From the NCBI GenBank assembly GCA_016218975.1, contig JACRCO010000071.1:83288-147287 (forward strand): a DNA stretch of 64,000 nucleotides, given 5' to 3'. The notes under the pieces are model-generated. The model was not told the origin of the DNA. It searched no databases and saw only the letters and a program-made list of their open reading frames with translations. This document shows positions 22,353 through 49,833 of this stretch, in pieces (the stretch's first letter is position 1; every line of letters begins with the position of its first letter). The position numbers were made by a program, and so were the translations under genes. The stretch is from Deltaproteobacteria bacterium. Lineage in GTDB: Bacteria; Desulfobacterota; Deferrimicrobia; Deferrimicrobiales; Deferrimicrobiaceae.

Positions 22353-22430
22353 TCACCGGAGAAAAAGATTTCCGCCCTCCCGCCCGGGGCGGGACCGCAA
22401 CAAAAACGGCGACGATAAGGTCTCCGGGGT

Positions 22431-29523: not shown

Positions 29524-31011
29524 ATGGAGACCGCACTCCGCATCCGGACATTCGTGAGACGGATATCCGAAAATATATCGGCGCTCCTCAGGAGCCGAAG
29601 CGTTCCCTGGAAGATCGCTCTCGTATACGCCGTTGTCGGGGTGACATGGCTCCTGTGCGAACATTACCTGCTCGGCGGTCTTGCAGCGCTCAAGGACATC
29701 CTTTACCTCCTCGCATCCGCCTTGCTGCTTTATAAAATCAGCGAATACTGGGTGGGCGTCATCCGGCGGCAGGAAATCGAGCTTGGATCGATCCGGGAAC
29801 GCATCCGCATCGTGGAACACTTCAGGCAGATGTTCGAGCAGAATGAAGAACCCATCCTGCTTTTCGAGCCGGGGACCGCCCGAATCCAGGATGCAAATCC
29901 CGCTGCTGAAGCTCTATATGGATATACCCGGCAGGAAATGACAGTGAAGGGACCCTCCCTGTTCGTCGTACCGGTCGAGCTGCCGGAATTAGAGAAACGG
30001 ATATCGGGCATAGACGAACATCGGCGGCTCGTCCTTGACAGGGTCCGGCACATCCGCAGGGACGGGGAAAATATCATCGTGTCGGTCCGCGGGAAGTCCA
30101 TCCGACTGCTGGAGGGCGGCAGCATCAGCTACTGCACGTTCCGCGACGTCACGGAGAGAATCCGGATGGAAAACGAGGCCATCACTCGACAGGCGCAGTT
30201 GATTCACGCCAGCAGGATGGCGGCGCTCGGAACAATCGTCTCAGGCGTGGCGCACGAGATCAACAATCCGAACAACCTGATAATGTTCAACGCGCCCATG
30301 ATAGGCAAGGCCTGGCGGGACGCCGAGCCTGTCCTCGAGAAGTTCCACCAGGAAAACGGCGATTTCCTCCTGGGCGGTCTCCCCTTTTCCGAAATGAGGG
30401 AGATCGTTCCCAAGCTGGTCGACGGAATCTCGGGCGGGTCCGCAAGGATCCGCAACATCGTGGGGACGCTGAAGGAGTTCGCGCGACAGGATACCCGGAA
30501 ACAGGATTGCCGGGTCAGCGCAAACGACGTCGTGAAAAACGCCGCCGCGATACTGAACCACGAAATAACGAAAAAGTGCCGGAATTTCCGCGTCTCTTAC
30601 GACGAGTCCGATCCGGCGGTCCAGGGATGCTCCCAGCAGCTGGAACAGGTCGTCGTCAACCTGATCATGAACTCGCTGCAGGCGTTGCGGGACAAAAACC
30701 GCGCGATACGCATCTCGACCTCCTTCGACCGCCGCGAGGGGAAAACCGGGATCTGCGTCGAGGACGAAGGTGAAGGGATGTCCGAAGATGTGATAAAGCG
30801 TCTTTCCGAGCCGTTCTTCTCCACGAGGTCGGAGGAAGGGGGCCTGGGTTTGGGCCTCTCCATATCCTTTTCCATCATCAAGGAGCACGGCGGAACCATC
30901 GAATACCGTTCCGAGGCGGGCAAGGGGACCGCCGCCCGCATTATCCTCCCGGCTGCGCCGGAATCGCTCGAACACCAATGCCGGAAGTCGGAGGTGCGGA
31001 TTCTCAGATGA
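29524..31011 (+). CDS. Sensor histidine kinase (2 TM-PAS-HisKA-HATPase), NtrB-like partner of the downstream activator
   Basis: 495 aa. PAS (ILLFEPGTARIQDANPAAEALYGYTRQEM), H-box VSGVAHEINNPNN, and N/G boxes (NLIMNSLQAL, DEGEGM, GLGLGLS). Confidence 0.9.
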   Translation: METALRIRTFVRRISENISALLRSRSVPWKIALVYAVVGVTWLLCEHYLLGGLAALKDILYLLASALLLYKISEYWVGVIRRQEIELGSIRERIRIVEHFRQMFEQNEEPILLFEPGTARIQDANPAAEALYGYTRQEMTVKGPSLFVVPVELPELEKRISGIDEHRRLVLDRVRHIRRDGENIIVSVRGKSIRLLEGGSISYCTFRDVTERIRMENEAITRQAQLIHASRMAALGTIVSGVAHEINNPNNLIMFNAPMIGKAWRDAEPVLEKFHQENGDFLLGGLPFSEMREIVPKLVDGISGGSARIRNIVGTLKEFARQDTRKQDCRVSANDVVKNAAAILNHEITKKCRNFRVSYDESDPAVQGCSQQLEQVVVNLIMNSLQALRDKNRAIRISTSFDRREGKTGICVEDEGEGMSEDVIKRLSEPFFSTRSEEGGLGLGLSISFSIIKEHGGTIEYRSEAGKGTAARIILPAAPESLEHQCRKSEVRILR

Positions 31012-32462
31012 TGGAACCGGATGACACGCGGAGTTCACTTTGCCGACCCGTCCTGCTCGTGGACGACGACCCGGCGTTTCTGCTTTCCTCCCAGGTGACG
31101 CTCCGTTCATCCGGGATCTCACCTGTCGAAACGATCAACGACAGCAGGCACGTTCTCCCTTTCCTGTCGGAACGGGAAGCATCCATCGTCGTGCTCGATC
31201 TCACCATGCCGCATATCGGCGGAACGGAGATCCTCGAAAAAATCAAGGCGGAGTTCCCGCACATTCCCGTTATCGTGTCGACCGCCCAGTGCGAGGTCGA
31301 TGTGGCGGTAACCTGCATGAAGGGCGGCGCCTTCGATTACCTGGTCAAGCCGATGGAAAGCAGCCGGTTTGTCTCGAGCGTTTCCCGGGCGCTCGAGCTT
31401 CATGGTCTCAGGCAGGAGGTCTCTTCGCTGAAAAAAAGCCTTCTTTCCTCCCGGTTGGAGGATGAGGCGGCATTTGCTGAAATCCTCACGCGAAGCGGTA
31501 AGATGCGGGCGATCTTCCGGTACGTCGAAGCCATCGCTCCGTCCGGCCAGCCCGTGCTCGTTACCGGCGAAACGGGGGTGGGAAAGGAGCTGATCGCCAA
31601 GGCGGTACACGACCGGAGCGGCTGCAAGGGTGCGTTCGTCCCGGTCAACGCTGCCGGACTCGACGACACGATGTTTTCGGACACCCTGTTCGGCCACAAG
31701 AAAGGCGCCTACACCGGCGCCGATCAGGCGAGGGAAGGGCTGATCGCCTGCGCAGCGGGCGGAACGCTGTTCCTCGACGAAGTGGGCGACATGAAAGTCT
31801 CCTCGCAGGTCAAGCTCCTTCGTCTCCTCGAGCAGAGAACCTACTATCCGCTCGGATCGGACGTCCAGAAGCGGTCCGATGCCAGGATCATCTGCGCCAC
31901 CGACAAGGATCTGAAGGCGCGCATGGTGGAGGGTACGTACCGCAAGGACCTTTACTATCGCCTGGCCGCCCATCACATTCACATCCCGACGCTGCGCGAA
32001 CGGCCCGAAGACCTTCCCCTCCTTGTCGGCCTTTTTCTCAAGGATTCCGCTTCGACGATGCGGAAAAGGGCGCCCTCGATTCCGCAGGAACTTTTCCTTC
32101 TGCTGTCTACCTATTCGTTCCCCGGAAACGTCCGCGAGCTGAAAACGATGGTCGCCAACGCCGTGGCGCAGCACACGACAGGCGTCCTTTCGATCGAAAG
32201 CTTCCGTAAAAAAATAGAGGAGGAGCGGGCGCACGCCGGTTCCAGCCCGTTACCGGTGCCGGGAAACGGTAACGTGCCTTTTCCGATCCCGGAGCGTTTT
32301 CCCACATTGAAGGACACGGAGCGATACCTTATCGCGGAAGCCCTCGAAAGATCCGGGAACAACCAGGGGGTCGCTGCGTCGCTTCTTGGAATTTCCCGCC
32401 AGGCGTTGAACAAACGGCTTGTGAGAATGGAAAGATCAGAAGGTTCAAGGCACAAGGGGTGA
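31008..32462 (+). CDS. Sigma-54-dependent response regulator (REC-AAA+-HTH, NtrC family)
   Basis: REC (VLLVDDDPAFLL...VVLDLTMPHIGG...KP), AAA+ ([31 protein letters not shown]) and Fis-type HTH (AASLLGISRQALNKRL). ATGA overlap with the kinase gene. Confidence 0.9.
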   Translation: MMEPDDTRSSLCRPVLLVDDDPAFLLSSQVTLRSSGISPVETINDSRHVLPFLSEREASIVVLDLTMPHIGGTEILEKIKAEFPHIPVIVSTAQCEVDVAVTCMKGGAFDYLVKPMESSRFVSSVSRALELHGLRQEVSSLKKSLLSSRLEDEAAFAEILTRSGKMRAIFRYVEAIAPSGQPVLVTGETGVGKELIAKAVHDRSGCKGAFVPVNAAGLDDTMFSDTLFGHKKGAYTGADQAREGLIACAAGGTLFLDEVGDMKVSSQVKLLRLLEQRTYYPLGSDVQKRSDARIICATDKDLKARMVEGTYRKDLYYRLAAHHIHIPTLRERPEDLPLLVGLFLKDSASTMRKRAPSIPQELFLLLSTYSFPGNVRELKTMVANAVAQHTTGVLSIESFRKKIEEERAHAGSSPLPVPGNGNVPFPIPERFPTLKDTERYLIAEALERSGNNQGVAASLLGISRQALNKRLVRMERSEGSRHKG

Positions 32463-32673
32463 AACTTCCGTCGCACCCCGGACGATTCCTTTTTGCCCTC
32501 CAAAGCTTGAATAACTAAAACATTCTATCGATTCGGCGAACCGCCCGTCCGGCGAACCGTCGCAGCCCTCCTGCGACCGCAATCTCCCGGTAATTTCACG
32601 GAAGTACCTGATATTCCGTCCGAAAATTACTCCGCGACGAATTGGCACTACTCTTGATACCAAGGGGTTCTCC

Positions 32674-33108
32674 ATGAGGGAGCCGAACGGAGAAGAAAAG
32701 TGCCCGGAGCGCCGGAAACACATCCTGCTGGTGGACGACGAACCGGATTTCCTGTACTCCGCGACCGTGGCCTTGCGTGGGGCGGGCTACGACGTAACCG
32801 TCGCGGGAAGCGGAGCTGATGCGTTGAAAATGATGATCGACGCTCACAACGGAGGCAGGCGGTATTCGCTTCTTCTCACGGACATAGTGATGCCGGGAAT
32901 GTCGGGGCTGGATCTGATCGCAGAAATGAAACGCCGGGAGATCGAAATTCCCGTGCTTGTCGTGACAGGCGTGAGCGACACCGTCCTGATTTCGGAATTC
33001 GGAAATGACGGGTGTATGGGGTATATCCAAAAACCGTTCCAACCGCCGGACCTGATCGGACTCGTCGGGAGGTTTCTCCAGCAAACGGAAAAGGAGGTTG
33101 AACTATGA
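32674..33108 (+). CDS. Single-domain CheY-like response regulator
   Basis: 144 aa. HILLVDDEPDF, phospho-acceptor context LLLTDIVMPGMSG, VLVVTG and IQKPF. Its stop overlaps the start of the 1777-aa gene (ATGA). Confidence 0.85.
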   Translation: MREPNGEEKCPERRKHILLVDDEPDFLYSATVALRGAGYDVTVAGSGADALKMMIDAHNGGRRYSLLLTDIVMPGMSGLDLIAEMKRREIEIPVLVVTGVSDTVLISEFGNDGCMGYIQKPFQPPDLIGLVGRFLQQTEKEVEL

Positions 33109-36100
33109 GAACCGTGAAGCGTAGCTGCATTCGGGAAAAACGGGCGGCATGGATAGGGGCGATATTGCCCGTCCTGCTTGTCGGAATGATCGTCCTGCAT
33201 ATCTCTCCCTCCGGGGCGGCGACTTTGGAAGTGGTAGGGGTAAACCGCAACCCGGCGGGATCTCCTGCGGGAACGCCGCCTCCTCCCCCTACATCCGTCG
33301 GCAGGTATTACTGGACCCTGCAGGAGGACGCGACGTATCCGGTCCGTCCCGGGGACAGCTCGACCAACCAATTGGCGGTCAGCTTCCATAAAAGCTACAT
33401 GCCGGTGATCGCCTCGGGATGCGTCGACCCTGCCGCAGGGCCGAGCAACCCGCAATGCAAGGCCGGCAGCGGGCTGGAATCGGTGGTGCTGGACCCCGCC
33501 AAGCGGTACTACGTTTCGGTGCTCCCGCTTGAAGCCGGAAGCTTCAGCAACAGCGGGACGTCCATTGCTCCTGGCCAGGCAAGCGTGAAGGTTTATGTTA
33601 ACAAGCTCCCCTTCCCCATGGCGCAGGTCAACATCTTCGCCACCGAGGACAACTACCCGATCAACGGATTCCCGGATGTCCCGGCGGAGAATCCCTTCCC
33701 TAACGTCGCCTTCTACCTGGTGGACACGGGCGGCCGCTACGGCATCTCCGGCGGACCGATGCTCACGGACGCCTTCGGAATGGCGCTGGGGACGACCTAT
33801 GAGCTCGATGCGAACGGGCAGCTCGTCGACAGCGACGGGGACGGCGTCCCCAACGTCGTGGCGGAAGGGTTGGGGTTCGTTCTCTCCGATTCCAACGGGA
33901 TGGCCAGCTTCAAGTACATTGCGCCGGGAAAATACAGCATTGTCGCGGTGCCGCCCGCTCCGTACATCCAGACGACCACGATCGAAGGTTCGAGGGTGAT
34001 CGACGCCTGGGTCAAGCCGAACGAGCCTCCCTACCTTCTTGAGTTCGGCCCCCCGACGCCTCATATCATCATGAGTTTCGCGAAGCAGACGCCCCTCGAC
34101 CCGGCATATGCCGGAATGCAAACCGTCACGGGGCAGATCGTCAACGACCACCTGGGGCGGCCTCCGGGGATTTCCTCCAACCCGGGCGCGCCGTTCAAGC
34201 ATACGACCCCCTGGATCGGGCTGAACGACTCCGCTACCGGGAAGGGGATCTACGTCGCGCGCACCAACGAAGACGGGACCTTTACCGTGCCTGCGATAAA
34301 GCCCGGCACGTACCAGCTCGTGGTCTGGGACGACTTCCTGGACATCATCATCAACTTCTCGACGGTGGTCGTAGGAAACGCCGACGTGAATCTCGGCAAG
34401 ATCCCCGTCATCCACTGGTTCACGCGGCAGGAGCACTACGTGTATCTCGACGAAAACGGCAACGGCGTCCGGGATCCCGAGGAGACGATGGGCATGCTGG
34501 AGCAGGCCGTCAACCTCCGCTGGCGTGACGGTACGATGTATCAGTCGTTTTTGACCGATGAGATGGGTTTTGCTTCCTTCAACGAGATCTTCCCCTTCTT
34601 CAACTGGCAAGTTTCCGAGGTGGATTTTCTCAGGTACAAAGCTACCGGCGTCCGGGTAACCGTGGACGACGGCGGACCGATCGACCCCTTGGAGCCATGG
34701 TCCTGGGGCGGACAGGTAACCCCGCAGATCCAGGCCGACGGCGGAAAGACCCGCATCGAAACCGGGCCTGTGCTCCTCGAAGCCTTCCAGGGGTTTGTTG
34801 GTTCCACAAGCGTATTCGAATGGGGTAAGAGCCCCTACGGGACGGACGAGAACGGCGGAATCACCGGGATCGTCCACTATTCGGTCACGCGCGCCGAGGA
34901 CGACCCGGTGTACGGCTTCGGGGAACCCTGGGAGCCGGGCATCGCAGGCGTTCAGGTCAACCTTTACACGGGAAATTTCCTTGCCGGGACCATCGTAGAC
35001 TCGAACGGCAACGGAACCATCGACCTTGCCGACATCGACAATTACCCGTTCCAGTGGACGGGCAAGGGTGACACGGCATACCCCGGCTACACGGGTGTGC
35101 CGGGTCCGGAGGATGTGGATCGCAACGGCAACGGCGTTTTCGATCTCGGCGATGCCGTACAGGCGACCTGGACCGATAGCTGGGACGAGAACATCCCCAC
35201 CGAATGCAGGGGTCCGTCGTTCTCCTTCCAGGGCAACCCCTCCGACTGCTTCGACGGCTTGAGAAACTGGAACCAGGTCCGGCCCGGGCTCTTCGACGGT
35301 GGGTACGCTTTCGGCACCGCTGTCACCGGCGATCCCAAATCCCTTCCCAGCGGCGTTTATATCGTCGAAGCGGTCCCTCCTCCGGGCTATGAGATAGTGA
35401 AAGAAGAAGACAAGAACGTCGACTTCGGCGACAACTACATGCCGCAGCCCGCCGCCGACTTCATTCCTCCGCTCGCGGACACTGGCGCGCCGCCGCCGCC
35501 CTTCAATCCGTTCGTCCCCCTCGGGGCTCCGCAGTGCGTGGGGGACCGCCATTTCGTGCCGGAACAATTGAGCCTGTTTCCCGGCGTTCCAACGGCTTTC
35601 TCCGGACAGGCCCGAAAGCTGTGCGACAGGAAATACGTGGTTCTCCAGGACGGTGAGAATGCGGCCGCCAATTTCTTCCTGTTCACGAAGGCTCCGATCG
35701 CGGGACAGTTCACCGGGTTGACCACCGACGACATCACGAACGACTCACGTGCATCGTCGCCTAACGCCGGGGAAAAGTACTCCCCGCCATGGATTCCGAT
35801 TTCCATCCGGGATTGGACGGGCAGGGAGCTCTCGCGCATCTACGCCGACGAGTTCGGCAAGTTCAACGGCCTTCTCCCCTCGACCTATACGGCGAACACC
35901 CCCTTGCCGAGCGGCATGACGCCGCAGATGATCACGACGTGCATGAACGACGCGATGATGCCGAATCCGGCGTACGTCCCGGGGGGCGAAGAGGACGAAT
36001 TCATCCTGGATCCCAGTTTCAACAAGTCTTACGGCCAGTTCTGCTACACATTCCAGTTCATGCCGGGATCCACGACGTACCTGGACCTGCCGGTGCTCCC

Positions 36101-38438
36101 CACGGCCGCCTATGTGGGACCTACCCAGGCCCCTCTTGACTGCGATCTTCCCAACCAGACCCCGACGATCCACGCCGTCAACGTTCCGGGCGCCGGAGGC
36201 GGGCCTTATGTAACGGCGAACCCGGCGAACAGCCAGGACAAGCAGGAAATCCTCATCGTATCTGACGGCACGGTGGCAGTTCCCAATCCGTTCTACTGCC
36301 CGGGACCCGAGTCGAATTGCTCGCCCACCAACCTGAACAAAACGATAAACAGGGACCACGGTTTCGGGACGGCGGCGGGCAAGGCGACCATCGACGTCAA
36401 CGGTACCATCCTGAACCTCACCATTACCCAGTGGACCAACAGGGTGATAAGGGCCAGGCTTCCGAACGACGTGCCGTCGGGCGAGTACCAGCTTGCGGTT
36501 TCGCGCAGCAACGGAAAATCGACGGAGAACGGCGTGACCCTGACGGTGGCGCTCGGCGCCGGGCAACCGATGCGCGTTCCCACGGCTGCTTATCCGACGA
36601 TCCAGTCGGCTGTCGACGCCGCCTCTCCCGGCGAATTGATACTCGTGGGACCGGGGAATTACATGGAGATGGTGGCTATGTGGAAACCGGTACGGCTCCA
36701 GGGATGGGGCGCCGGGTCCACGACCATCAACGCAATCATGTTCCCCATAGAAAAAGTGCAGATCTGGCGTGAGAAGGTAAAGGCCCTGCTGGACGCCGGC
36801 GAATTCAGCCTGCTCCCCAGCCAGGAAGCCGGCTCTCCGGGTATCCTTCCCGTCCTCGGGATGGGCGCCCTCGGCGCCAATGTGCTTCTTGAAAGTCCGG
36901 GCGTCATGGTGCTTGCGAAAGACGACACCCAACCCGGCTCCCCGTCTAACGGATTCATCCCGGGATCCTCCCGGATCGACGGATTCAACATCATCGGCTC
37001 CGTCAACGGCGGCGGCATCATCGTCAACGGATACGCCCACAATCTTTCGATCGGCAACAACAGGATCTCCAACAATATGGGAGTCAGCAGCGGCGGAATC
37101 AGGATCGGGCACGTCGATCTCGTTTCCTGCGACACCCCCCCCTGCACCGACCCCACGGACCCGACGCGCCGCTACCAGGGAGCGTTCAATGACGGAATAC
37201 GCATCCACCACAACCAGGTGGCGCGGAACGGCGGCACGAACCTGGGTGCGGGCGGAGTGATGCTCGGCTCCGGTTCAGACGGCTACAAGGTGACCGAGAA
37301 CTGGATCTGCGGAAACATCACCCTCGGCGACGGCGGCGGCGGCATCGGGCACCACGGCCTGAGCGAAGACGGCCTGATCGCCCGCAACGCGATCATATTC
37401 AACGAAGCGTGGAGCAACCAGGCGGAAGGGCGAGGCGGCGGCATCTTCGTCGGCGGCCTTACCGCGCTCGCGCCCGCCGTCCTGACCGACGGCTCGGGAA
37501 CGGTGACGGTCGACTCCAACCTGATCCTCGGCAACGGGGCGGGCGCCGGCGACGGCGCCGGAATCGCCGCCTACCAGGTCAACGGAAAAGACGTTGCCGA
37601 TGCCCCCGGCACTCCGGACGGCTGGCACACCCTCAATATCTTCAACAACATGGTCGTGAACAACGTCACGGGCCTGGCAGGCGCCATATCGCTTCAGGAC
37701 GCGGCCAGGAGCAACATCATCAACAACACGGTCGCCAGAAACGACAGCACCGCGACCGCGCGTGCGGCCTTCACCGCCCCGCCGCCCGCCGCATCCACTC
37801 CGCAGCCGGCCGGCATCGCGTCGCGCGCACACAGCAACGTGCTGGCGTCCGCTTCGGCGCAGGCGGGGCTTTTCTCCAACCCGCAGTTGTTGAACAACAT
37901 TCTCTGGCAGAACCGGTCATTCACGGCCGTTCAGAATCCGGCCACCCTCGACTGGTCCCTCCAGCCGGCAACCGCCCCCTGGAACTACCAGGACCTGGGT
38001 GTGCTCGATACGGGAGCCGCCGACCTGTTGAATCCGATGTACGGGATTCTTACGACCCTCAACGGCTACAGTCCGAACAACCTCGGCGGGCCGGGTGCAA
38101 ACCCGAATTTCCTCCTGTCGTACTTCAATATCGGCCTGGGCGAACTGCCCGCCATATTCGACGAGGGCGGGAACTTCCTCCGGGTTTCCTTCGGGCCGCA
38201 TACCCTGATGAATACGAACGGCACGACTCCCTACGGAAACTACCACATCAATCCATCGAGTCCGGCGTCGCATGTCCCCGGAACCCGGTATGTCCCGGGG
38301 ACGCAGACGCTTCTCTGGAACATGTATCCCGAGCTCGGGAAGGATTTCGACGGAGGCAACCGTCCCTCCGTGTCGGGTCCGGACAGGGGCGCGGATGAAG
38401 TGCCCCCGGTTGCGGCTCAGGGAAGCATATTGCCATAG
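33105..38438 (+). CDS. Giant secreted protein: CNA-B/carboxypeptidase-regulatory-like folds, Ca-binding DxDxDG loops, IPT/TIG-like domain, C-terminal right-handed parallel beta-helix
   Basis: 1777 aa with an N-terminal signal/anchor. Repeated G.Y.V..VPP(G)Y motifs (GKYSIVAVPP, GTYQLVVWDD, GVYIVEAVPPPGYEIV). Loops DSDGDGVPN, DENGNGVRD, DSNGNGTIDLADID, DVDRNGNGVFDLGD. Beta-helix entry PTIQSAVDAASPGELILVGPGNYMEMV, followed by many NN.I..N repeats. Confidence 0.85.
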   Translation: MRTVKRSCIREKRAAWIGAILPVLLVGMIVLHISPSGAATLEVVGVNRNPAGSPAGTPPPPPTSVGRYYWTLQEDATYPVRPGDSSTNQLAVSFHKSYMPVIASGCVDPAAGPSNPQCKAGSGLESVVLDPAKRYYVSVLPLEAGSFSNSGTSIAPGQASVKVYVNKLPFPMAQVNIFATEDNYPINGFPDVPAENPFPNVAFYLVDTGGRYGISGGPMLTDAFGMALGTTYELDANGQLVDSDGDGVPNVVAEGLGFVLSDSNGMASFKYIAPGKYSIVAVPPAPYIQTTTIEGSRVIDAWVKPNEPPYLLEFGPPTPHIIMSFAKQTPLDPAYAGMQTVTGQIVNDHLGRPPGISSNPGAPFKHTTPWIGLNDSATGKGIYVARTNEDGTFTVPAIKPGTYQLVVWDDFLDIIINFSTVVVGNADVNLGKIPVIHWFTRQEHYVYLDENGNGVRDPEETMGMLEQAVNLRWRDGTMYQSFLTDEMGFASFNEIFPFFNWQVSEVDFLRYKATGVRVTVDDGGPIDPLEPWSWGGQVTPQIQADGGKTRIETGPVLLEAFQGFVGSTSVFEWGKSPYGTDENGGITGIVHYSVTRAEDDPVYGFGEPWEPGIAGVQVNLYTGNFLAGTIVDSNGNGTIDLADIDNYPFQWTGKGDTAYPGYTGVPGPEDVDRNGNGVFDLGDAVQATWTDSWDENIPTECRGPSFSFQGNPSDCFDGLRNWNQVRPGLFDGGYAFGTAVTGDPKSLPSGVYIVEAVPPPGYEIVKEEDKNVDFGDNYMPQPAADFIPPLADTGAPPPPFNPFVPLGAPQCVGDRHFVPEQLSLFPGVPTAFSGQARKLCDRKYVVLQDGENAAANFFLFTKAPIAGQFTGLTTDDITNDSRASSPNAGEKYSPPWIPISIRDWTGRELSRIYADEFGKFNGLLPSTYTANTPLPSGMTPQMITTCMNDAMMPNPAYVPGGEEDEFILDPSFNKSYGQFCYTFQFMPGSTTYLDLPVLPTAAYVGPTQAPLDCDLPNQTPTIHAVNVPGAGGGPYVTANPANSQDKQEILIVSDGTVAVPNPFYCPGPESNCSPTNLNKTINRDHGFGTAAGKATIDVNGTILNLTITQWTNRVIRARLPNDVPSGEYQLAVSRSNGKSTENGVTLTVALGAGQPMRVPTAAYPTIQSAVDAASPGELILVGPGNYMEMVAMWKPVRLQGWGAGSTTINAIMFPIEKVQIWREKVKALLDAGEFSLLPSQEAGSPGILPVLGMGALGANVLLESPGVMVLAKDDTQPGSPSNGFIPGSSRIDGFNIIGSVNGGGIIVNGYAHNLSIGNNRISNNMGVSSGGIRIGHVDLVSCDTPPCTDPTDPTRRYQGAFNDGIRIHHNQVARNGGTNLGAGGVMLGSGSDGYKVTENWICGNITLGDGGGGIGHHGLSEDGLIARNAIIFNEAWSNQAEGRGGGIFVGGLTALAPAVLTDGSGTVTVDSNLILGNGAGAGDGAGIAAYQVNGKDVADAPGTPDGWHTLNIFNNMVVNNVTGLAGAISLQDAARSNIINNTVARNDSTATARAAFTAPPPAASTPQPAGIASRAHSNVLASASAQAGLFSNPQLLNNILWQNRSFTAVQNPATLDWSLQPATAPWNYQDLGVLDTGAADLLNPMYGILTTLNGYSPNNLGGPGANPNFLLSYFNIGLGELPAIFDEGGNFLRVSFGPHTLMNTNGTTPYGNYHINPSSPASHVPGTRYVPGTQTLLWNMYPELGKDFDGGNRPSVSGPDRGADEVPPVAAQGSILP

Positions 38439-38456: not shown

Positions 38457-39620
38457 ATGAAGAAGATCGGAATGCGCATAGCTCCTTTCCTTGCAGGGTT
38501 CCTTCTCCTGGCTGGAGGAGGAAATTCAGGAGCCGCGGTCCTCGTCCAGTGCGGCGACCCGGGCAACCCGAAAGACAAATGCATGCACCTGTCCTCGGGC
38601 GACGGGTTCGTCACGATGGCGGACGGCAAGGTCCTGTACACGTTCGGGTTCGGCGACATCACCGCCAGCGCCGATCCGCTCATCGACGGCATGCTGGCAG
38701 CGGAATTCACCGGGCCGACGATTTCCTTGGACGAAGGGGACCGGTTTTTCCTCAACCTTACGAACGTCGGCATGATGATGCGCCCGGACCTTTTCGACCC
38801 GCATTCGCTCCACTGGCACGGATTCCCGAATGCCTCGAACATCTTCGATGGAGAGCCCCATGGCACCATAGGAATCAACATGGGGTCCACCCTGACCTAT
38901 TTCTACAACGTCGTCGAGCCCGGCACCTACATGTACCACTGCCACGTGGAGGCGACCGAGCATATGGAAATGGGCATGCTGTCGAACCTTTACGTGCGCC
39001 CGAGGCAGAACGGCACGCCGCTCGGCACTTGCGACGGGGGGGCGCCCTGCACGATGTTCGCTTACAACGACGGCGACGGCTCCACGGGCTACGACGTGGA
39101 ATATCCTATCCAGGTAAGCGGGTTCGACGGGTATTTCCATGAGCAGCATATCGCCGTTCAACCCCTTCCGTTCCACACGTTGCGCGTCACTTATCCGGTG
39201 ATGAACGGAAGAGGCTATCCGGACACCGTCAACCCGAATCCGCTTCCTCCCCCCGCGGAAAACGGGGGAAAGGAGTCCCAGCGGGTGAGTTCCCTTATAA
39301 ACGCCTCGCCCGGGCAAAAGGTGCTCCTTCGCCTCTCCAGCCTGAGCGTGCACCATGACTTCACCCTGGCCGCTCTCGGCATCCCGATGAGGATCGTCGG
39401 CCGCGACGCAAGGCTGCTGCGCGGGCCGGACGGCAAGGACCTTTCCTACGTCACCAATTCGATACTGCTCGGCTCCGGAGAGACGGCGGACGCGATCCTC
39501 GATATCCCGCCGGACACCGCGCCGGGAACGAGATATTTCCTTTATACGACCAACCTGAATTTCCTGAGCAACGACCAGGAGGATTTCGGCGGGATGATGA
39601 CCGAAATCCGGATCAACTGA
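38457..39620 (+). CDS. Two-domain cupredoxin protein A: N-domain carries the T1 site plus half of the trinuclear-cluster His ligands
   Basis: 387 aa with a Sec signal. GPTISLDEGDRFFLNLTN...HSLHWHG (nt 38802-38819)...GTYMYHCHVEATEHMEMGM (HCH at nt 38937-38945). The C-domain has no ligand motif. Confidence 0.85.
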   Translation: MKKIGMRIAPFLAGFLLLAGGGNSGAAVLVQCGDPGNPKDKCMHLSSGDGFVTMADGKVLYTFGFGDITASADPLIDGMLAAEFTGPTISLDEGDRFFLNLTNVGMMMRPDLFDPHSLHWHGFPNASNIFDGEPHGTIGINMGSTLTYFYNVVEPGTYMYHCHVEATEHMEMGMLSNLYVRPRQNGTPLGTCDGGAPCTMFAYNDGDGSTGYDVEYPIQVSGFDGYFHEQHIAVQPLPFHTLRVTYPVMNGRGYPDTVNPNPLPPPAENGGKESQRVSSLINASPGQKVLLRLSSLSVHHDFTLAALGIPMRIVGRDARLLRGPDGKDLSYVTNSILLGSGETADAILDIPPDTAPGTRYFLYTTNLNFLSNDQEDFGGMMTEIRIN

Positions 39621-39635
39621 AGAAGGAGGCGCGGC

Positions 39636-41033
39636 ATGAGAAGAACAGCGAATATGCGCAGGATGAAATCCTTCCTGTCGATCGCCATTGCGATTGTATT
39701 GCTGTCCGTGAACGGGCCCGGCGCCGAAGCCGTCGTAGACGGCATCACCGGAACGGCGTTCAACCTGACGGCCAGGGAGGACTTCATCAGCACGGCGGAC
39801 GGGGGCTCCGTCCTGATCTGGGGTTATGACGACGGCTCCGGCAGGGCCCAGTACCCGGGCCCGACATTGATAGTCGACCAGGGTGTCGCGGTGACGATAA
39901 CGTTGACGAACGCGCTGCCGGCATCGGCCGGAAACGCCTCCATCGTTATTCCGGGCCAGCAGGTGTCGTCAAGCGGGGGGACGGCCGGCCGTTTGACCCG
40001 CGAAGCCGTACCCGGCGGAACCGTAATGTACACCTTCACCCCGGCGAGACCCGGGACCTTCCTGTACCACAGCGGCACCCTGACCGAAATCCAGGAGGAG
40101 ATGGGGATGGCCGGAGCGATCATCGTCCGGCCCGCCGGTTTCAACCCCGCCGCGCCTACCGCTTACGGCCATGCGGACTCCGCCTATGACCGGGAGTATC
40201 TTTTCATCCTGAGCGAGATGGATTCCCGGATCCACGACGTGGTCGAGTTCCTGGGCCCCGACGCGCTGGGATGGTTCGATTTCCTTTCAAGTCCTTACCC
40301 CAACTACTATTTCATCAACGGCCGGACCGCGGTCGACACCATGTCTATGAGCAACTCCCCGGGGACCGGGCTGTACCCGACGCAGCCATACGGAGCCATG
40401 GCGGTGATGCACCCCGGGGACAGGGTGCTTCTGCGGGTCGTCGGGATCGGACGGGGCTCCCATCCGTTCCATCTTCACGGGAACCATGCACGGGTGATCG
40501 CGAAGGACGGCCGCATGCTGGAGAGCGCTCCGGGGGCCGGACCGGACCTGAGCACCGAAATCTTTACGATACTGTCCTCTCCCGGCCAGACTACGGATTC
40601 CATCTTCGAATGGACCGGGAAGGGGATGGGATGGGACATCTACGGCGCCGACGCCGGCCACGAGCACCCGTGCAACGGCATGACGGTCGCGCAGGCTCAA
40701 GCGCTGCGCGCAAGCAACCCGAACGATGCCTACTTCGGTTCGCAGGATCCGGCAACGAAGGAATGGTGCGCCGACCACGGCAATGAGATCCCCGTCACGC
40801 TGCCGAACTCCCTGGATCTGACCATGGGGCCGTTCTTCAGCGCGAGCCCGTACCTCGGGAGGACGGAAGATCCCCTGGCGCTTCCGGTCGGCCAGCAGAA
40901 TTTCAACGGATACGGAGCATATATCTTCATGTGGCACAGCCACAATGAAAAAGAGCTTCTCAACTACGGAGTTTTCCCCGGCGGCATGTTGACCATGATG
41001 GCGATCCTGCCCCAATCCGTTCCGCTGGATTAG
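39636..41033 (+). CDS. Two-domain cupredoxin protein B: C-domain carries HxxHxH and HSH motifs but no T1 Cys
   Basis: 465 aa with a Sec signal. The N-domain is MCO-like but ligand-less (IVIPGQ, FLYHSGT...EMGMAGAIIVRP). The C-domain has HPFHLHG (nt 40461-40478) and WHSH (nt 40932-40943). Confidence 0.85.
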   Translation: MRRTANMRRMKSFLSIAIAIVLLSVNGPGAEAVVDGITGTAFNLTAREDFISTADGGSVLIWGYDDGSGRAQYPGPTLIVDQGVAVTITLTNALPASAGNASIVIPGQQVSSSGGTAGRLTREAVPGGTVMYTFTPARPGTFLYHSGTLTEIQEEMGMAGAIIVRPAGFNPAAPTAYGHADSAYDREYLFILSEMDSRIHDVVEFLGPDALGWFDFLSSPYPNYYFINGRTAVDTMSMSNSPGTGLYPTQPYGAMAVMHPGDRVLLRVVGIGRGSHPFHLHGNHARVIAKDGRMLESAPGAGPDLSTEIFTILSSPGQTTDSIFEWTGKGMGWDIYGADAGHEHPCNGMTVAQAQALRASNPNDAYFGSQDPATKEWCADHGNEIPVTLPNSLDLTMGPFFSASPYLGRTEDPLALPVGQQNFNGYGAYIFMWHSHNEKELLNYGVFPGGMLTMMAILPQSVPLD

Positions 41034-41051: not shown

Positions 41052-43328
41052 ATGATTTCAGCGAACGTTGAAAAGAGAAGAGGGATATCGATTCTCGCAG
41101 GGATCGCGGTTCTCCTGCTGGCGGCCCCCTCCTTTGCGGTGACGGTCGACCTGGTCGCGAAGAAGTTCACCACGGCCATGCCGGACGGAGCGGTCGTCAA
41201 CATGTGGGGGTTCGCCGCGGATACGGGGCAGGCCTGCGACGAAACGGCCGGCTGGGTTCCAGGGCCGGCGCTGTCCGTAACCCTGCCGGATACCCTGACC
41301 GTAAACCTGCGGAACTGCCTCGACGAGCCTGCCTCGATCGTCATCGCAGGCCAAAAGGCTGTCCTTGCCCCGGTATTTGCGCCGCCTGACGCGCAGGGAA
41401 GACAGAGGGCGACTTCGTTCACCGGCACGGCAGGACCCAGTGGAGGCACCAGCCAGTACACATGGACCGGCCTCAAGCCGGGGACGCATCTATACGAAAG
41501 CGGAACCCAGCCGCAGATCCAGGTCCAGATGGGTCTCTACGGCGCCTTGAATGTCTACCCGGCCGTTGGTCTCGCATATCCGGGCGTGCCATTCGACAAC
41601 GAGGTGGTCCTGCTCTACAGCGAGATCGACAAGGCGCTGCATGAAGCCGTGGCAGGCGGCAAGTACGGAAGCAGTTGTTCCAATCCTCCCTGCACGATGA
41701 CCAGCACCATCGACTATAAGGCCAACTACTTCCTGATCGACGGCCTGCCGTTCCAGGAAGGCCAGGCGGCGCTGAACGCCGGGAGTTCCGGCCAGACTAC
41801 ACTCTTGCGGTTCCTGAACGCCGGCCTCAGGACGCATATACCCACACTCCACAACGGCGGATACATGAAGTTGATCGCCGAAGACGGCAACCTCTACCCG
41901 TATCCGAAAGAGCAGTACTCCGTGCTGCTCCCGGCCGGGAAGACCGTCGACGCCCTCTGGAACCCTCCCGCCGACGGCGCTTTCCCGTTGTTCGACAGCA
42001 CCCGCCAGGCGACGGACGGGATTCCCGGATCCGTCATGCTCGCCTACCTCCAGGCGGGGGCCGCATCATCCAATACCCCTCCCGCGGCGAACAGCCAGAT
42101 CGTCAATACGAATGAAGATACGGCCACTCCCATAACGCTGACCGGCTCCGACGGTGACGGAAACCCCCTCACCTATGCGCTTGTGGCGGGTTCAGGCCCT
42201 GCAAACGGCACGCTGTCCGGCGCGGCGCCGAATCTCTCCTACACGCCGAACGCGAATTACTTCGGGCCGGACAGTTTCCGGTTCACGGTCAACGATGGAC
42301 AAAGCACATCCAACGAAGCGACGGTTTCCATAACCGTGAACTCAGTCAACGATGCGCCGGGCTTCACCGCGGGTCCGAACCAGGCGGTGACCCAGCCCGC
42401 GGGAGCGCAGTCGGTTCCCAACTGGGCCACAGGCATTTCTTCCGGCCCGGCCAACGAATCGGCCCAGACGGTGAGTTTCCTCGTATCCAACAACAATAAC
42501 GCGCTGTTCTCGGCGCAGCCTGCGGTCTCTCCGGCGGGGACGCTTACCTACACGCCCGCCGCCGGCGCAAGCGGATCCGCCACGGTTACTGCGCAGGCGC
42601 AGGACAACGGCGGCACGGCGAACGGCGGAGTGGACACCAGCGCGCCGCAGATCTTTACGATCACCGTGAACCCGGAGCCGGCATCGGACCTGATCTTTGC
42701 CGACGGTTTCGAGTCCGGCAACTTCTCGGCCTGGAACGCGGAGCAGGATCCGGGCGGCCAGAACGACCTTAACGTGACCGCCGCAGCGGCGCTGACCGGC
42801 GGGTTCGGCATGGCGGCCACTATCGACGACAATACCGGCATGTGGGTTATGAGCAACACGCCGGCCAACGAGACGCGCTACAGGGCGCGTTTCCGGTTCG
42901 ATCCCAACAGCGTCCCGATGACCAACGGCAACGCTTTCTTCATCATGACCGCCCGCAGCGGCAATAACAACACGGGAGTCGACGTGGTGCGGATCGAGTT
43001 CGCCAGGTTCGCCGGCATCTATCATGTTCGCGCCGTATCGCGGACCGACGCCGGGGGGTACAAAAACGGCGCATGGCAGACCGTCCCGGATTCCCCCGTC
43101 GTCTTCGAGTTCGACTGGGCGGCGTCAACGGCCGCGGGAGCGAACAACGGCTACCTGACTTTCTGGATCGACGGCGTGCAAAAGACCTCTTCGACGGGCA
43201 TCGACAGCGATACGCTGAGAATCGAGTCCGCGCGGCTCGGACCGCTGTCGGGAATCGACACGGGCACGAGAGGGACCGTGTACTTCGACGATTTCGTGTC
43301 GCGGCGATTGAATTACATAGGTCCGTGA
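41052..43328 (+). CDS. Ligand-less cupredoxin pair fused to cadherin-like/Ig-like repeats and a C-terminal LamG-like jelly-roll (protein C)
   Basis: 758 aa. MCO-like framing (GPALSVTLPDTLTVNLRN...GTHLYESGTQPQIQVQMGLYGALNVYP) without His/Cys ligands. The middle has PPAANSQIVNTNEDTATPITL...FTVNDGQSTSNEATVSITVNSVNDAP repeats. The tail has DGFESGNFSAWN...YFDDF. Confidence 0.8.
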   Translation: MISANVEKRRGISILAGIAVLLLAAPSFAVTVDLVAKKFTTAMPDGAVVNMWGFAADTGQACDETAGWVPGPALSVTLPDTLTVNLRNCLDEPASIVIAGQKAVLAPVFAPPDAQGRQRATSFTGTAGPSGGTSQYTWTGLKPGTHLYESGTQPQIQVQMGLYGALNVYPAVGLAYPGVPFDNEVVLLYSEIDKALHEAVAGGKYGSSCSNPPCTMTSTIDYKANYFLIDGLPFQEGQAALNAGSSGQTTLLRFLNAGLRTHIPTLHNGGYMKLIAEDGNLYPYPKEQYSVLLPAGKTVDALWNPPADGAFPLFDSTRQATDGIPGSVMLAYLQAGAASSNTPPAANSQIVNTNEDTATPITLTGSDGDGNPLTYALVAGSGPANGTLSGAAPNLSYTPNANYFGPDSFRFTVNDGQSTSNEATVSITVNSVNDAPGFTAGPNQAVTQPAGAQSVPNWATGISSGPANESAQTVSFLVSNNNNALFSAQPAVSPAGTLTYTPAAGASGSATVTAQAQDNGGTANGGVDTSAPQIFTITVNPEPASDLIFADGFESGNFSAWNAEQDPGGQNDLNVTAAAALTGGFGMAATIDDNTGMWVMSNTPANETRYRARFRFDPNSVPMTNGNAFFIMTARSGNNNTGVDVVRIEFARFAGIYHVRAVSRTDAGGYKNGAWQTVPDSPVVFEFDWAASTAAGANNGYLTFWIDGVQKTSSTGIDSDTLRIESARLGPLSGIDTGTRGTVYFDDFVSRRLNYIGP

Positions 43329-43336: not shown

Positions 43337-43753
43337 ATGAAATGCCGGGCATCTTCCATGGTAAACAGGAAGGTGCCCGGCTTCTTCATTCTGCTCTGCC
43401 TTACTGCTATTGCGCCTTCGTTTTGCCCCACAGCCCTGGCCGAGCCGAACAACCCCCCTGTGGCCGTACCCGATTCGGCTACGGTGCGCCGCAACACTTC
43501 GATCGCCATCGATGTGCTCGCCAACGATTACGACCCCGATCCCGGCACGACCCCGGCCGGCAAACTCGACCGGGCAACGGTTACGATCGTTTCAAGGCCG
43601 ATCGCCGGCGGGAGGGTGGCAGTCAGCGAGACGGGCGTGGTTACATACGCCCCGAAGAGGAAATTTCGGGGCATGGACTTCTTCCGCTACACCGTGAAGG
43701 ACGGTGAAGGAGCGGTTTCCGCGCCCGCAAAAGTGACGATAACCGTCAAGTAA
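43337..43753 (+). CDS. Small secreted cadherin-like (Ig-like) domain protein
   Basis: Signal peptide (MVNRKVPGFFILLCLTAIAPSFCPTALA), then PPVAVPDSATVRRNTSIAIDVLANDYDPD...FRYTVKDGEGAVSAPAKVTITV. The start may be ATG 43337 or 43358. Confidence 0.7.
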   Translation: MKCRASSMVNRKVPGFFILLCLTAIAPSFCPTALAEPNNPPVAVPDSATVRRNTSIAIDVLANDYDPDPGTTPAGKLDRATVTIVSRPIAGGRVAVSETGVVTYAPKRKFRGMDFFRYTVKDGEGAVSAPAKVTITVK

Positions 43754-43950: not shown

Positions 43951-43966
43951 TGGCATGGGGCTTGCT
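43951..43966 (+). promoter_or_regulatory. Sigma-54 promoter candidate upstream of the Big2-repeat cytochrome gene
   Basis: TGGCATGGGGCTTGCT is an exact TGGCAY-N5-TTGCW spacing in an AT-rich 456-bp intergenic region, about 245 nt upstream of ATG 44210. Confidence 0.6.
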
Positions 43967-44209
43967 GATAATGGTTACACCTACAGATTCTCAACCACAT
44001 AATTCGTAAATTACGGAACAAGGAAAAACCATACGGTTTTTCTCATTAAACGGATTATGGGAATCCTTGGGTGCTTCAGGCGGCAAGGATCTAGAGCAAA
44101 GCGAAAGGAGGTAACGTCGGTCACCATGGTGTCCGAAAATGGAAGTGGAAGTTCGATCGTACAAGAACAGGAAGTAACGGATTCAAAAAAAGAAAAGGGA
44201 GTATCAGTA

Positions 44210-45496
44210 ATGAAGAAAACTTTGAAAATTGCAGCTATATTGCTTGCGCTCGGCATTGCACAGACACCGGCGGTTCCTGTAGTTAACGCCGAAAACGGCT
44301 CATCCATTCAGCAGAAGATGGAGCAGCAGAGGGAGAAGGAACGCAGGGAAAGGGAAAAGGAGAAGGAACGGGCCCGCAGGGAAAGAGAGAGAGAAAGGGC
44401 GCGTCTTGAAAGAGAAAAGCAGAAGGCGCATCAGGGGTCCGGTAAACCTGGCCCTGGGACCACTCCCGCACCGGGACCTGCACCGACCCCGATCGTGACG
44501 CTTAGCGGAATCACGATCAGCGGTTCTTCCTCGGTGAACGAGGGCGCGACGGCGACATTCACGGCGGCTGCTTCATGGAGCAACGGGACGAAGACCTCCG
44601 TTTCTCCTACATGGAGCGCGAACATGGGGACGATCAGCGCATCGGGATTCTTCTCAGCACCGCAGGTGTCCGCGAACCAGACGGCGACAATCAACGCAAG
44701 CTACAGCTCCGGCGGGGTGACAAAGACGGCCTCCGTGTCGGTCACCGTCGTCAACGGTTCGGTCGTCGTTACGAAAACGCTCAGCGGCATCACGGTCAGC
44801 GGATCTTCCTCGGTGAACGAGGGCGCCACGGCGGCGTACACGGCCACGGCTTCCTGGAGCGACGGGACGAAGACCTCCGTTTCTCCGACCTGGAGCGCGA
44901 ACCTCGGCTCTATCAGCACCTCGGGCGTTTTCTCCGCCCCGCAGGTGACAGCGAACCAAACGGCGACCATCGGCGCCAGCTACAGCGTCGGCGGAGTTAC
45001 CAAGACGGCCTCTGTGTCGGTAACCGTCGTCAATGGTTCGGTTGTCGTTACGAAAACGCTCAGCGGCATTACGATCAGCGGATCTTCCTCGGTGAACGAG
45101 GGCGCCACGGCGGCGTACATGGCCACGGCTTCCTGGAGCGACGGGACGAAGACCTCCGTTTCTCCGGCCTGGAGCGCGAACCTTGGCGCTATCAGCACCT
45201 CGGGCGTCTTCTCCGCACCGCAGGTGACAGCGAACCAGGCGGCCACCATCGGCGCCAGCTACAGCTACGGCGGTGTCACCAGGACTGCCTCCGTGGCGGT
45301 AACCGTAGTCAACTCCGCAACGTCGACCATTGACGGAGGCGCGCTGTACACCCAGTACTGCTCCAGTTGCCATGGCACCTCGAAGCGCGGGAAGTCGGCC
45401 ACGTCCACCCAGAACGCCATCAACAACAACACCGGCGGGATGGGCTTCCTGAGCAATCTCACCAGCGCCCAAATCACCGCCATTTCACTGTACTAA
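44210..45496 (+). CDS. Secreted protein: E/R/K-rich helix, three Big_2-like repeats, C-terminal mono-haem c-type cytochrome domain
   Basis: Signal peptide MKKTLKIAAILLALGIAQTPAVPVVNA. Charged stretch REKERREREKEKERARRERERERARLEREK. Three 93-aa repeats, then CSSCH (nt 45359-45373) with a downstream GGMGF Met ligand candidate. Confidence 0.8.
   Translation: MKKTLKIAAILLALGIAQTPAVPVVNAENGSSIQQKMEQQREKERREREKEKERARRERERERARLEREKQKAHQGSGKPGPGTTPAPGPAPTPIVTLSGITISGSSSVNEGATATFTAAASWSNGTKTSVSPTWSANMGTISASGFFSAPQVSANQTATINASYSSGGVTKTASVSVTVVNGSVVVTKTLSGITVSGSSSVNEGATAAYTATASWSDGTKTSVSPTWSANLGSISTSGVFSAPQVTANQTATIGASYSVGGVTKTASVSVTVVNGSVVVTKTLSGITISGSSSVNEGATAAYMATASWSDGTKTSVSPAWSANLGAISTSGVFSAPQVTANQAATIGASYSYGGVTRTASVAVTVVNSATSTIDGGALYTQYCSSCHGTSKRGKSATSTQNAINNNTGGMGFLSNLTSAQITAISLY
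44498..45334 (+). repeat. Three in-frame tandem repeats of 279 bp (93 aa) inside the cytochrome gene
   Basis: Units start at 44498, 44777 and 45056 (ACGCT(T/C)AGCGG(A/C)ATCACG...). Units 2 and 3 are nearly identical at the DNA level. Confidence 0.85.
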
Positions 45497-45551
45497 TACC
45501 AATTCCGACCAGTGAGCCCTCCCCCCGGGGAGGGCTCCGTTCCACCTTAAA

Positions 45552-45582
45552 CCCCCGCCTTTCCAGGGCGGGGGTTTTTTGT
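45552..45582 (+). terminator. Rho-independent terminator after the cytochrome gene
   Basis: CCCCCGCC (45552-45559), loop TTTCCAG, GGCGGGGG (45567-45574), then TTTTTTGTT. A second GC hairpin, GAGCCCTCCCC..GGGGAGGGCTC, precedes it at about 45514-45538. Confidence 0.7.
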
Positions 45583-49812: not shown

Positions 49813-49833
49813 GCCGTTCTCCCCCACAAGAAG

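Follow-up and report, generated by a model that had tools for sequence, protein, structure and literature searches.

This study concerns a 64,000-nucleotide window (the whole stretch of DNA that was analyzed) from a Deltaproteobacteria bacterium (GenBank assembly GCA_016218975.1, contig JACRCO010000071.1, positions 83,288 to 147,287 of the forward strand), in which three adjacent genes encode two-domain cupredoxin proteins, here called subunits A, B, and C, next to the gene of a large secreted protein, BIG. The copper ligands of a multicopper oxidase (MCO) are divided between A and B. The full set comprises four HxH pairs and one type 1 (T1) copper site; A has the T1 site and two of the pairs, B has the other two pairs, no single chain is complete, and the sum of A and B is. 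The best overall explanation, to which we assign a probability of about 0.75, is that the gene of a type-C two-domain MCO was triplicated, that the copies divided the ligands among themselves, and that the products would assemble into a BIG-bound ABC ring with one trinuclear cluster built between A and B. With regard to its parts, a heteromeric A/B trinuclear cluster is highly probable from the comparison of the ligand columns, and the full ABC ring, which is proposed by analogy, is reasonably likely.

Copper ligands of subunits A, B, and C

The closest solved structures of A and B are those of the type-C two-domain MCOs from Nitrosomonas europaea (PDB entry 3G5W) and from a metagenome (mgLAC; PDB entry 2ZWN). 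The AlphaFold2 monomer models of A (120 homologs) and B (117 homologs) have predicted local distance difference test scores (pLDDT) of 87.5 and 90.3 and predicted TM-scores of 0.86 and 0.88, respectively. The best Foldseek match of the A model is 3G5W (TM-score on the target = 0.76, root mean square deviation = 2.7), those of the B model are 2ZWN and 3G5W (TM-score on the target = 0.72 to 0.73), and for both models the copper nitrite reductases (NirKs) and three-domain laccases rank after the two-domain MCOs. The type-C two-domain fold is thus assigned to A and B by the match of their models and to C by hhalign to A and B. The interface in 3G5W and 2ZWN is formed where domain 1 of one chain meets domain 2 of the next; the trinuclear histidines of the MCO fold face the interface between the domains, and a single cupredoxin domain cannot form the site. 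Both the T1 and the trinuclear sites of two-domain MCOs of this type are located at the interface of two subunits (PMC11761707).

The T1 site of subunit A consists of H116, C162, H169, and M174, and its trinuclear-cluster histidines are H119, H121, H161, and H163; all of these residues are in domain 1. The two motifs that contain them (Table 1) fall on PHTIHWHG and YHCHVNVNEH..M of 3G5W domain 1 in the HMMER alignment, in agreement with a preliminary description of this stretch, made from the sequence alone, which had assigned a complete T1 set and two HxH pairs to the N-terminal domain of A. E168, at position Cys+6, would correspond to the proton-relay glutamate of CueO and CotA. The Pfam families Cu-oxidase_3/_2 match A at residues 83 to 184, and Cu-oxidase matches at residues 254 to 369. 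The second domain of A had been described as having no ligand motif, and this holds in both the profile-profile and the joint alignment; at the columns that carry the ligands in B, it has F/T/L, and Y-T-T at the last motif.

In subunit B, the ligands are in domain 2. The motif HPFHLHG falls on HAIHTHG of 3G5W and HAMHSHG of 2ZWN (domain 2 in both cases) in the HMMER alignments. The WHSH motif lies beyond these alignments and was placed by the profile alignment of the paralogs and by the fold match, which spans the whole 2ZWN chain; the His and Cys residues of both proteins are therefore located in ligand columns, as had been expected. The two HxH pairs in the C-terminal domain of B and the serine in place of the T1 Cys had also been read correctly beforehand, but the glutamate that had been proposed at the position of the T1 His had not; because the second T1 His is found at Cys+7 both in this family and in 3G5W, its relic in B is L442, which is Thr in most orthologs. 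At the ligand columns of domain 1, B has V/V/P and (H)-S-G, Q, L, with Ser, Gly, and Gln at the T1 site, i.e., its N-terminal domain has lost the ligands, as was stated in the preliminary description, and contains no T1 site. Cu-oxidase_3 and Cu-oxidase_2 match B at residues 72 to 166 and 244 to 294, respectively. Domain 2 of B also contains an insertion of ~90 residues, visible as a gap in the profile alignment, that is absent from A, from C, and from the solved two-domain MCOs. The insertion is confidently modeled (block-mean pLDDT of ~81 to 97) and contains the near-invariant residues H344, C346, E376, C378, D380, and H381; it may be an additional metal or substrate site or a disulfide-stabilized lid.

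Residues 1 to ~340 of subunit C are a two-domain cupredoxin unit without any HxH pair, which is followed by Big_9/cadherin-like domains and a C-terminal domain, for which searches against Pfam, NCBIfam, and PDB sequences gave nothing informative. The C-terminal extensions are variable among the orthologs and include immunoglobulin (Ig)-like, cadherin-like, and dockerin domains. In the two-domain unit, Cu-oxidase_3 matches at residues 66 to 170 and Cu-oxidase at residues 236 to 320. The Cu-oxidase_3, Cu-oxidase_2, and Cu-oxidase matches to A, B, and C are above the gathering scores, with the exception of Cu-oxidase on C (20.8 versus 21). As in B, the residues of C at the domain 1 ligand columns of A are of the V/V/P type and (H or Q)-S-G, Q, L, and no T1 site is present; at the domain 2 ligand columns of B, C has H/V/Q, and nothing at the last motif.

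The three proteins align with one another in hhalign with probabilities of 99.9% for A and B (27% identity, 343 columns), 99.5% for A and C (25% identity), and 100% for B and C (30% identity, 293 aligned columns), and A, B, and C are, by these profile comparisons, paralogs. Among their six domains, trinuclear-cluster histidines occur only in domain 1 of A and domain 2 of B, and the T1 site occurs only in domain 1 of A.

Conservation, co-inheritance, and gene fusions

The orthologs were taken from 239 loci of species-representative genomes and comprise ~150 non-redundant sequences. Pattern scans over 185,579 species genomes gave 175, 331, and 496 relatives, and a search with B as the query against 1.84 billion representatives gave 206 clusters at E <= 1e-30. 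The ligands H116, H119, H121, H161, C162, H163, H169, and M174 of A are kept in 149 to 150 of the 150 non-redundant orthologs, and E168 is kept in 150 of 150. The corresponding values for B are 141 of 141 for H276, H279, and H281 and 139 to 140 of 141 for H434, S435, and H436, and two glutamates that follow S435 are also nearly invariant, i.e., E438 at position +3 (138 of 141) and E440 at position +5 (139 of 141). To judge from these counts, both half-sites are under purifying selection. Across ~150 orthologs, neither A, B, nor C contains both trinuclear half-sites in one chain, and the losses of the half-sites are, by this alignment evidence, real and far beyond chance. The central statement of the preliminary description, that A and B jointly supply four HxH pairs and one T1 site and that neither does so alone, has held up, and the split is invariant across phyla. 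The reading of a copper center split between A and B is supported by strong comparative evidence.

A second triad, A', B', and C', is encoded on the minus strand of the same window (Table 1) and shows the same complementary ligand split as A-B-C. The identities of A' to A, of B' to B, and of C' to the N-terminal part of C are 53%, 46%, and 37%, respectively, and the split is, on this comparison, preserved in two copies that diverged long ago.

The co-occurrence of the genes was counted only at loci with enough flanking sequence. When the loci were sampled via A, BIG was found at 116 of 116, B at 116 of 116, and C at 115 of 116, the exception (L066) being a divergent C; when they were sampled via B, A was immediately upstream in 70 of 70 cases and C immediately downstream in 66 of 67. 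The obligate co-occurrence of A and B that had been suggested is thus observed from both sides. The usual intergenic gaps across the loci are ~15 to 25 nt. The hosts belong to Desulfobacterota, Nitrospirota, Beta- and Gammaproteobacteria, Myxococcota, Acidobacteriota, the PVC group (Planctomycetota, Verrucomicrobiota, and Kiritimatiellia), and others. Cultured carriers include Paraburkholderia aspalathi LMG 27731, P. lacunae S27, P. ginsengiterrae DCY85, Burkholderia sp. H160, Myxococcus sp. RHSTA-1-4, and Desulfosarcina cetonica, and these make the question open to experiment.

In 60 orthologs of BIG, 299 residues are conserved at 90% or more. BIG contains no CXXCH motif, its matches in Pfam and NCBIfam are only weak, and no meaningful match was found in the PDB. 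A small gene of the x173 family directly follows C in most genomes (111 of 116 loci). It encodes a protein of ~145 to 175 residues with a lipobox in Gram-negative examples (L083:14527-15045, L162:8793-9224, and the x173-type gene of the window), for which neither a Pfam nor an NCBIfam family was found and a search of PDB sequences returned nothing informative.

Three independent kinds of natural fusion join the components. In loci of the PVC group, BIG and A form one ORF (open reading frame) of 2100 to 2860 residues, in which a DTDGDG linker takes the place of the signal peptide of A. B and C are fused in P0405 (1156 aa), P0406 (884 aa), and P0495 (820 aa), where a B-type unit (HPFHPH, WHSH) is followed by a C-type unit; at L162 (71% G+C), the gene order is BIG, A (HTVHWH, HCH), the B-C fusion, a small x173-type gene, and CopC/CopD. 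C and BIG form one ORF of at least 2000 residues in Paraburkholderia aspalathi, P. lacunae, Burkholderia sp. H160, and some Acidobacteria, and the gene order in these lineages is A, B, C, BIG. By "Rosetta stone" reasoning, the BIG-A, B-C, and C-BIG fusions therefore place all four products in one assembly. Four BIG-A ORFs (L028, L034, L038, and L045) contain a PAP2/vanadium-haloperoxidase-like stretch ('...ERVWAGVHF..GN...') between the BIG and A parts; the junction directly precedes the A part, ~240 nt 5' of the A match. Two other relatives also combine several units in one chain: in P0500 (745 aa), a complete type-C two-domain MCO unit is combined with a B-like unit and a cupredoxin at the C-terminus, and P0493 (696 aa) contains two ligand-free C-like units.

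Proposed assembly, alternatives, and known copper proteins

Because domain 1 of one chain and domain 2 of the neighboring chain share the cluster in the type-C enzymes, and because A holds the domain 1 half, B the domain 2 half, and C neither, only the A/B interface could build a cluster; from the aligned ligand positions, we infer that A domain 1 and B domain 2 are physically juxtaposed. In the model proposed here, triplication of the gene of a type-C two-domain MCO would have given A, B, and C, and the copies would then have divided the copper ligands. Each product would be exported by the Sec pathway, with folding and copper loading in the periplasm, and the three would form a ring with pseudo-threefold symmetry, in which the six cupredoxin domains follow one another as A1-A2-C1-C2-B1-B2. 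Such a ring would contain one trinuclear cluster and one T1 copper, i.e., four copper ions, like laccase. Electrons would enter at the T1 copper of A and, by way of the Cys162-His161/163 bridge, reach the cluster that A shares with B, at which O2 would be reduced to water. C would close the ring, its variable C-terminal domains would anchor or target the complex, and the ring would be bound to the β-helix protein BIG. We consider it most likely that the earlier A/B reading extends in this way to an A+B+C ring with a single copper site on BIG. Our guess for the reducing substrate is a metal ion, either extracellular or periplasmic, or a c-type cytochrome, and any particular substrate would be a decidedly doubtful choice. 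The module is frequent among bacteria that cycle iron, sulfur, and manganese, and it has accessory genes in common with the MofA/OmpB clusters, for which a link to extracellular metal redox chemistry has been made; on these grounds, it is a concrete candidate for an unassigned metal or cytochrome oxidase.

Several points weigh against the ring model. Its stoichiometry and ring order rest on analogy, and it does not explain what BIG, the x173 lipoprotein, and the ~90-residue insertion of B do. Many of the hosts are strict anaerobes (Desulfobulbaceae, Syntrophaceae, and metagenome-assembled genomes of Geobacter), which is odd for an enzyme that reduces O2. Covariation was calculated from 183 non-identical A-B-C triplets (effective number, ~145). 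With mutual information and average-product correction, pairs between A domain 1 and B domain 2 are enriched just 1.2- to 1.5-fold, and the strongest enrichment is between A domain 2 and B domain 2, which a simple ring does not predict; in a mean-field direct-coupling analysis with a reduced alphabet, indel artifacts prevailed. Several of the top covarying pairs flank the ligand motifs; these connect A115, A133, A136, A158, A164, and A167 with B284, B305, B421, and B431.

An assembly in which A and B share the cluster and C stays outside, i.e., an A-B heterodimer or (AB)n with C and BIG as peripheral adhesins or scaffolds, would suit the absence of ligands from C, the high variability of its C-terminal extensions, and the lack of covariation enrichment for the B-domain-1/C-domain-2 and C-domain-1/A-domain-2 pairs that the ring predicts. 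The dodecameric two-domain MCO 7RAB is among the fold matches, so that the quaternary structure is not fixed within this fold. We nevertheless consider a position of C outside the ring unlikely. C is a full-length two-domain paralog that aligns with B at 100% probability over 293 columns, it is co-inherited as strictly as A and B, and some lineages have it fused to B; so far as is known, all of the solved two-domain MCOs and NirKs among the fold matches are built from trimers of two-domain subunits. That A, B, and C are separate proteins with no common metal site, A being a T1 electron carrier with vestigial histidines and B and C copper-binding or structural pseudo-enzymes left by decay after duplication, is highly improbable. 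Pseudo-enzyme paralogs are common, and the covariation analyses do not speak clearly for a shared site, but decay would not keep the eight trinuclear histidines invariant in ~150 lineages, nor would it do so again in a second, diverged copy. It is also established for MCOs that the trinuclear histidines point into the interface between domains, where no single-domain site is possible, and three different fusions join the components.

The chemistry of the complex is a separate matter. The eight histidines, with both HxH pairs in each half-site, are the trinuclear signature of MCOs and not the three-His type 2 (T2) site of NirK; A domain 2 has no conserved His that would complete a NirK-type site, and E168 of A, which would occupy the position of the proton-relay glutamate of CueO and CotA, is invariant. 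These features make it very improbable that the complex assembles and then serves as a NirK-like nitrite or NO reductase, as a copper store or sensor, or as an electron conduit with which anaerobes reduce extracellular metals, a role that has been proposed for Geobacter OmpB. In favor of such a function are the many anaerobic hosts, the presence of NirKs among the next-best fold matches, the frequent occurrence of a MofC-like cytochrome c and SCO1 in the clusters, as in OmpB/MofA clusters (PMC5566968), and the report of a two-domain MCO that oxidizes hydroxylamine (PMC11761707).

When the proposed ABC ring is compared with 3G5W and 2ZWN, both A and B have the two cupredoxin domains of these enzymes with the HxxHxH and HxH motifs in the same places, and A shares with them the T1 site in domain 1 and the HCH-x5-H-x4/5-M spacing. 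On the other hand, 3G5W and 2ZWN are homotrimers of one gene product with both half-sites in each chain, which gives three clusters and three T1 coppers, whereas the half-sites of A-B-C are on different products and would give at most one cluster and one T1 copper per ring. The distribution of the ligands speaks against a working homotrimer. The ~90-residue insertion of B and the obligatory presence of BIG are further differences.

Ceruloplasmin, hephaestin, factor VIII, and the bacterial MnxG have a six-domain ring with one trinuclear cluster between two particular domains. The six-domain MCOs are single chains with T1 sites in even-numbered domains, whereas A-B-C would consist of three chains with the T1 site in an odd-numbered domain, and no sequence relationship closer than that of the superfamily was seen between them and A, B, or C. 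Their proposed origin is the triplication of a two-domain ancestor, after which every trinuclear site except one was lost (PMC3600357). If our model is correct, A-B-C would represent, in living bacteria, the hypothetical intermediate that connects the homotrimeric two-domain oxidases with the ceruloplasmin-type six-domain enzymes, and the triplication and asymmetric loss of sites proposed as the route to ceruloplasmin-type proteins could occur among separate genes, before fusion; the B-C, BIG-A, and C-BIG fusions would then be later steps. The B-C fusions P0405 and P0406 look like partial steps toward a single chain, if the analogy holds; the six cupredoxin domains of A, B, and C are spread over three ORFs, and the lineages that join some of them have such partial B-C fusions only.

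The Mnx complex of Bacillus (MnxG with MnxE3F3) is also a heteromeric MCO encoded by adjacent genes. So far as is known, MnxG alone contains its trinuclear cluster, and MnxE and MnxF are not known to be cupredoxin paralogs. NirK is a trimer of two-domain cupredoxins with a catalytic copper at the interface of identical subunits and a three-His T2 site; domain 1 contributes two of these histidines and domain 2 of the neighbor the third, and the motif is of the HCA type rather than HCH. A differs from NirK in that it has HCH, complete HxH pairs, and no conserved His in domain 2, and the NCBIfam model Cu_nitrite_red scores 22 to 37 bits versus a cutoff of 296.

MofA and OmpB of Leptothrix and Geobacter are large secreted copper proteins that consist of single long polypeptides. 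A MofC-like protein and an SCO1/SenC chaperone are encoded in their clusters (PMC5566968), and the triad has MofC-like and SCO1 genes as neighbors in 33 of 56 loci; the likeness seen is one of cluster composition. These shared accessory genes suggest, by analogy, a functional kinship of the triad with the MofA/OmpB clusters. OmpB is reportedly exported by type II secretion, and such a system adjoins the second triad of the window; GSU1395, a neighbor of ompB, is annotated just as hypothetical. The closest earlier mention is a sentence of He et al. (2017) on Sideroxydans lithotrophicus ES-1, in which "three tandem MCO-coding genes" with predicted extracellular products were described together with mofC-like and copper-chaperone genes, and no function was assigned to them (PMC5566968). 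By this description, the ES-1 genes match loci of the L083 type, and the same paper is silent on split ligands or a heteromer. ES-1 was not among the 80 loci that were kept from 331 relatives in the sampling with a Sulfuricella A homolog, nor among the five loci that a MofC-like query gave; the ES-1 genes may belong to the same family.

With regard to novelty, none of the NCBIfam models (June 2026) represents A, B, or C, the best scores being 14 to 43 bits versus cutoffs of ~300 to 950. The database names of the homologs are "multicopper oxidase domain-containing protein", "FtsP/CotA-like", and, for some B homologs, "manganese oxidase". To our knowledge, in every quaternary form of MCO described so far the trinuclear cluster lies within one chain or between identical chains. 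The preliminary description knew of no MCO whose cluster is assembled from two different polypeptides, and our literature searches on heteromeric and heterotrimeric MCOs likewise found no trinuclear cluster made from two gene products; their only results were a proteolytic α-α-α' form of one gene product (PMC11761707) and oligomeric laccases that are unrelated. A-B-C would probably be the first natural MCO with a trinuclear cluster from two gene products, in a heterotrimeric ring that forms the catalytic core of a widespread four-component BIG-A-B-C machine. If so, the obligate heteromeric cluster would be a new quaternary form of MCO, and the genes of hundreds of species that carry the generic names "multicopper oxidase domain-containing protein" or "manganese oxidase" would give inactive products when expressed alone. 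The machine would be periplasmic or extracellular, in bacteria of sediment, soil, and groundwater that include strict anaerobes.

Gene string, second triad, and neighboring genes

The features of the window are listed in Table 1. A, B, and C are three separate ORFs in one reading frame, each with its own start codon, Shine-Dalgarno sequence, and signal peptide. The gaps are 18 nt between BIG and A, 15 nt between A and B, and 18 nt between B and C, and AAGGAGG is found 6 to 9 nt ahead of the ATG of each of the three genes; the limits of the A and B ORFs and their spacing are those given in the preliminary description. No strong terminator-like hairpin was found in the gene string before the one at its end. 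The signal peptides are of the Sec type in appearance, in line with the Sec signals noted earlier for A and B; a twin arginine is found in 6 of 149 A, 15 of 144 B, and 7 of 128 C orthologs, and export of A, B, and C by the twin-arginine (Tat) pathway was ruled out because of this rarity.

Table 1. Features of the 64,000-nucleotide window; positions are counted from its first nucleotide
Feature	Position	Strand	Description
PAS histidine kinase and sigma-54-dependent response regulator	29524-32462	+	Directly upstream of the gene string
BIG	33105-38438	+	1777 aa, secreted; Ig-like/SdrD_B-type domains and right-handed β-helix region, weak NosD-like start
Subunit A	38457-39620	+	387 aa; two-domain cupredoxin protein
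A motif HSLHWH	38802-38819	+	H116, H119, H121; aligns to HTIHWH of 3G5W
A motif HCHVEATEHMEMGM	38937-38978	+	H161, C162, H163, H169, M174; E168 at Cys+6
Subunit B	39636-41033	+	465 aa; two-domain cupredoxin protein
B motif HPFHLH	40461-40478	+	H276, relic of the T1-His column; H279 and H281, trinuclear-cluster His
Insertion in B domain 2	40647-40919	+	~90 aa, residues ~338-428; gap in profile alignment
B motif WHSHNEKE	40932-40955	+	H434 and H436, trinuclear-cluster His; S435 in place of T1 Cys
Subunit C	41052-43328	+	758 aa; third paralog
Small secreted Big_9/cadherin-like protein	43337-43753	+	Accessory specific to the window
D	44057-45496	+	Lys/Glu/Arg-rich coiled coil, three Ig-like tandem repeats of ~93 aa, C-terminal monoheme cytochrome c (CSSCH)
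Intrinsic-terminator-like hairpin, strong	45549-45577	+	13 base pairs, then T run; closes the BIG-A-B-C-...-D string
Type II secretion operon, complete	GspE 56426-58132 to GspD 47386-49827	-	GspE, GspH-like, GspK, PilN-like, GspD
β-Propeller lipoprotein	58283-59566	-	Follows the x173-type gene
x173-family small lipoprotein	59583-60032	-	Follows C'
C'	60049-61725	-	558 aa; 37% identical to N-terminal part of C; no HxH pair
B'	61744-63126	-	460 aa; 46% identical to B; HPFHPH, HSHSEKE, no T1 site
A'	63123-64000	-	Truncated at window end; 53% identical to A; HSVHYH and HCHVEATEHMQMGM

The histidine kinase and the response regulator upstream of BIG may be the regulators of the gene string. Sigma-54-type matches to the -24/-12 promoter element with one mismatch were found at 32643-32657 (5' of BIG) and 43951-43965 (5' of D). 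The window has no more matches of this quality than chance would give, and a sigma-54 promoter 5' of BIG was rejected. The cytochrome-containing protein D may be a redox partner of the triad, and a D gene was absent beside the triad elsewhere (0 of 116 loci).

The type II secretion operon and the two lipoprotein genes are co-directional with A'-B'-C', and the adjacent secretion system may be an export route. A BIG partner of this second triad, if one exists, would be encoded outside the window. Type II secretion was rejected as a general partner; it is near the triad in few other loci and is not generally found within 10 kb.

The downstream flank extends over at least 9.5 kb at 56 loci; of these, 48 have a subtilisin-like peptidase, 33 have SCO1/SenC, and 33 have a MofC-like protein, which consists of a cytochrome c and a periplasmic-binding domain. 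The copper-handling neighbors in other lineages are CopC/CopD or a DUF2946 protein together with a thioredoxin-fold protein. The Sec signals and the copper-handling neighbors point, from the gene content, to periplasmic folding and dedicated copper insertion. In Paraburkholderia aspalathi, the region L239:889-3023 upstream of A encodes a DUF2946 protein and a thioredoxin/AhpC-fold protein, which are candidate copper-handling accessories. On a Desulfobulbaceae-type contig, the gene of a conventional three-domain MCO of 771 residues (L081/L082:16451-18766) follows a peptidase S8 gene, ~5 kb downstream from the triad and in the same orientation. Farther upstream in the window, the plus-strand genes at 22190-25931 encode DRAT, DRAG, and a NifA-like GAF/sigma-54 activator, with which the host is probably a diazotroph, and a chromate transporter is encoded at 27192-28337 on the minus strand.

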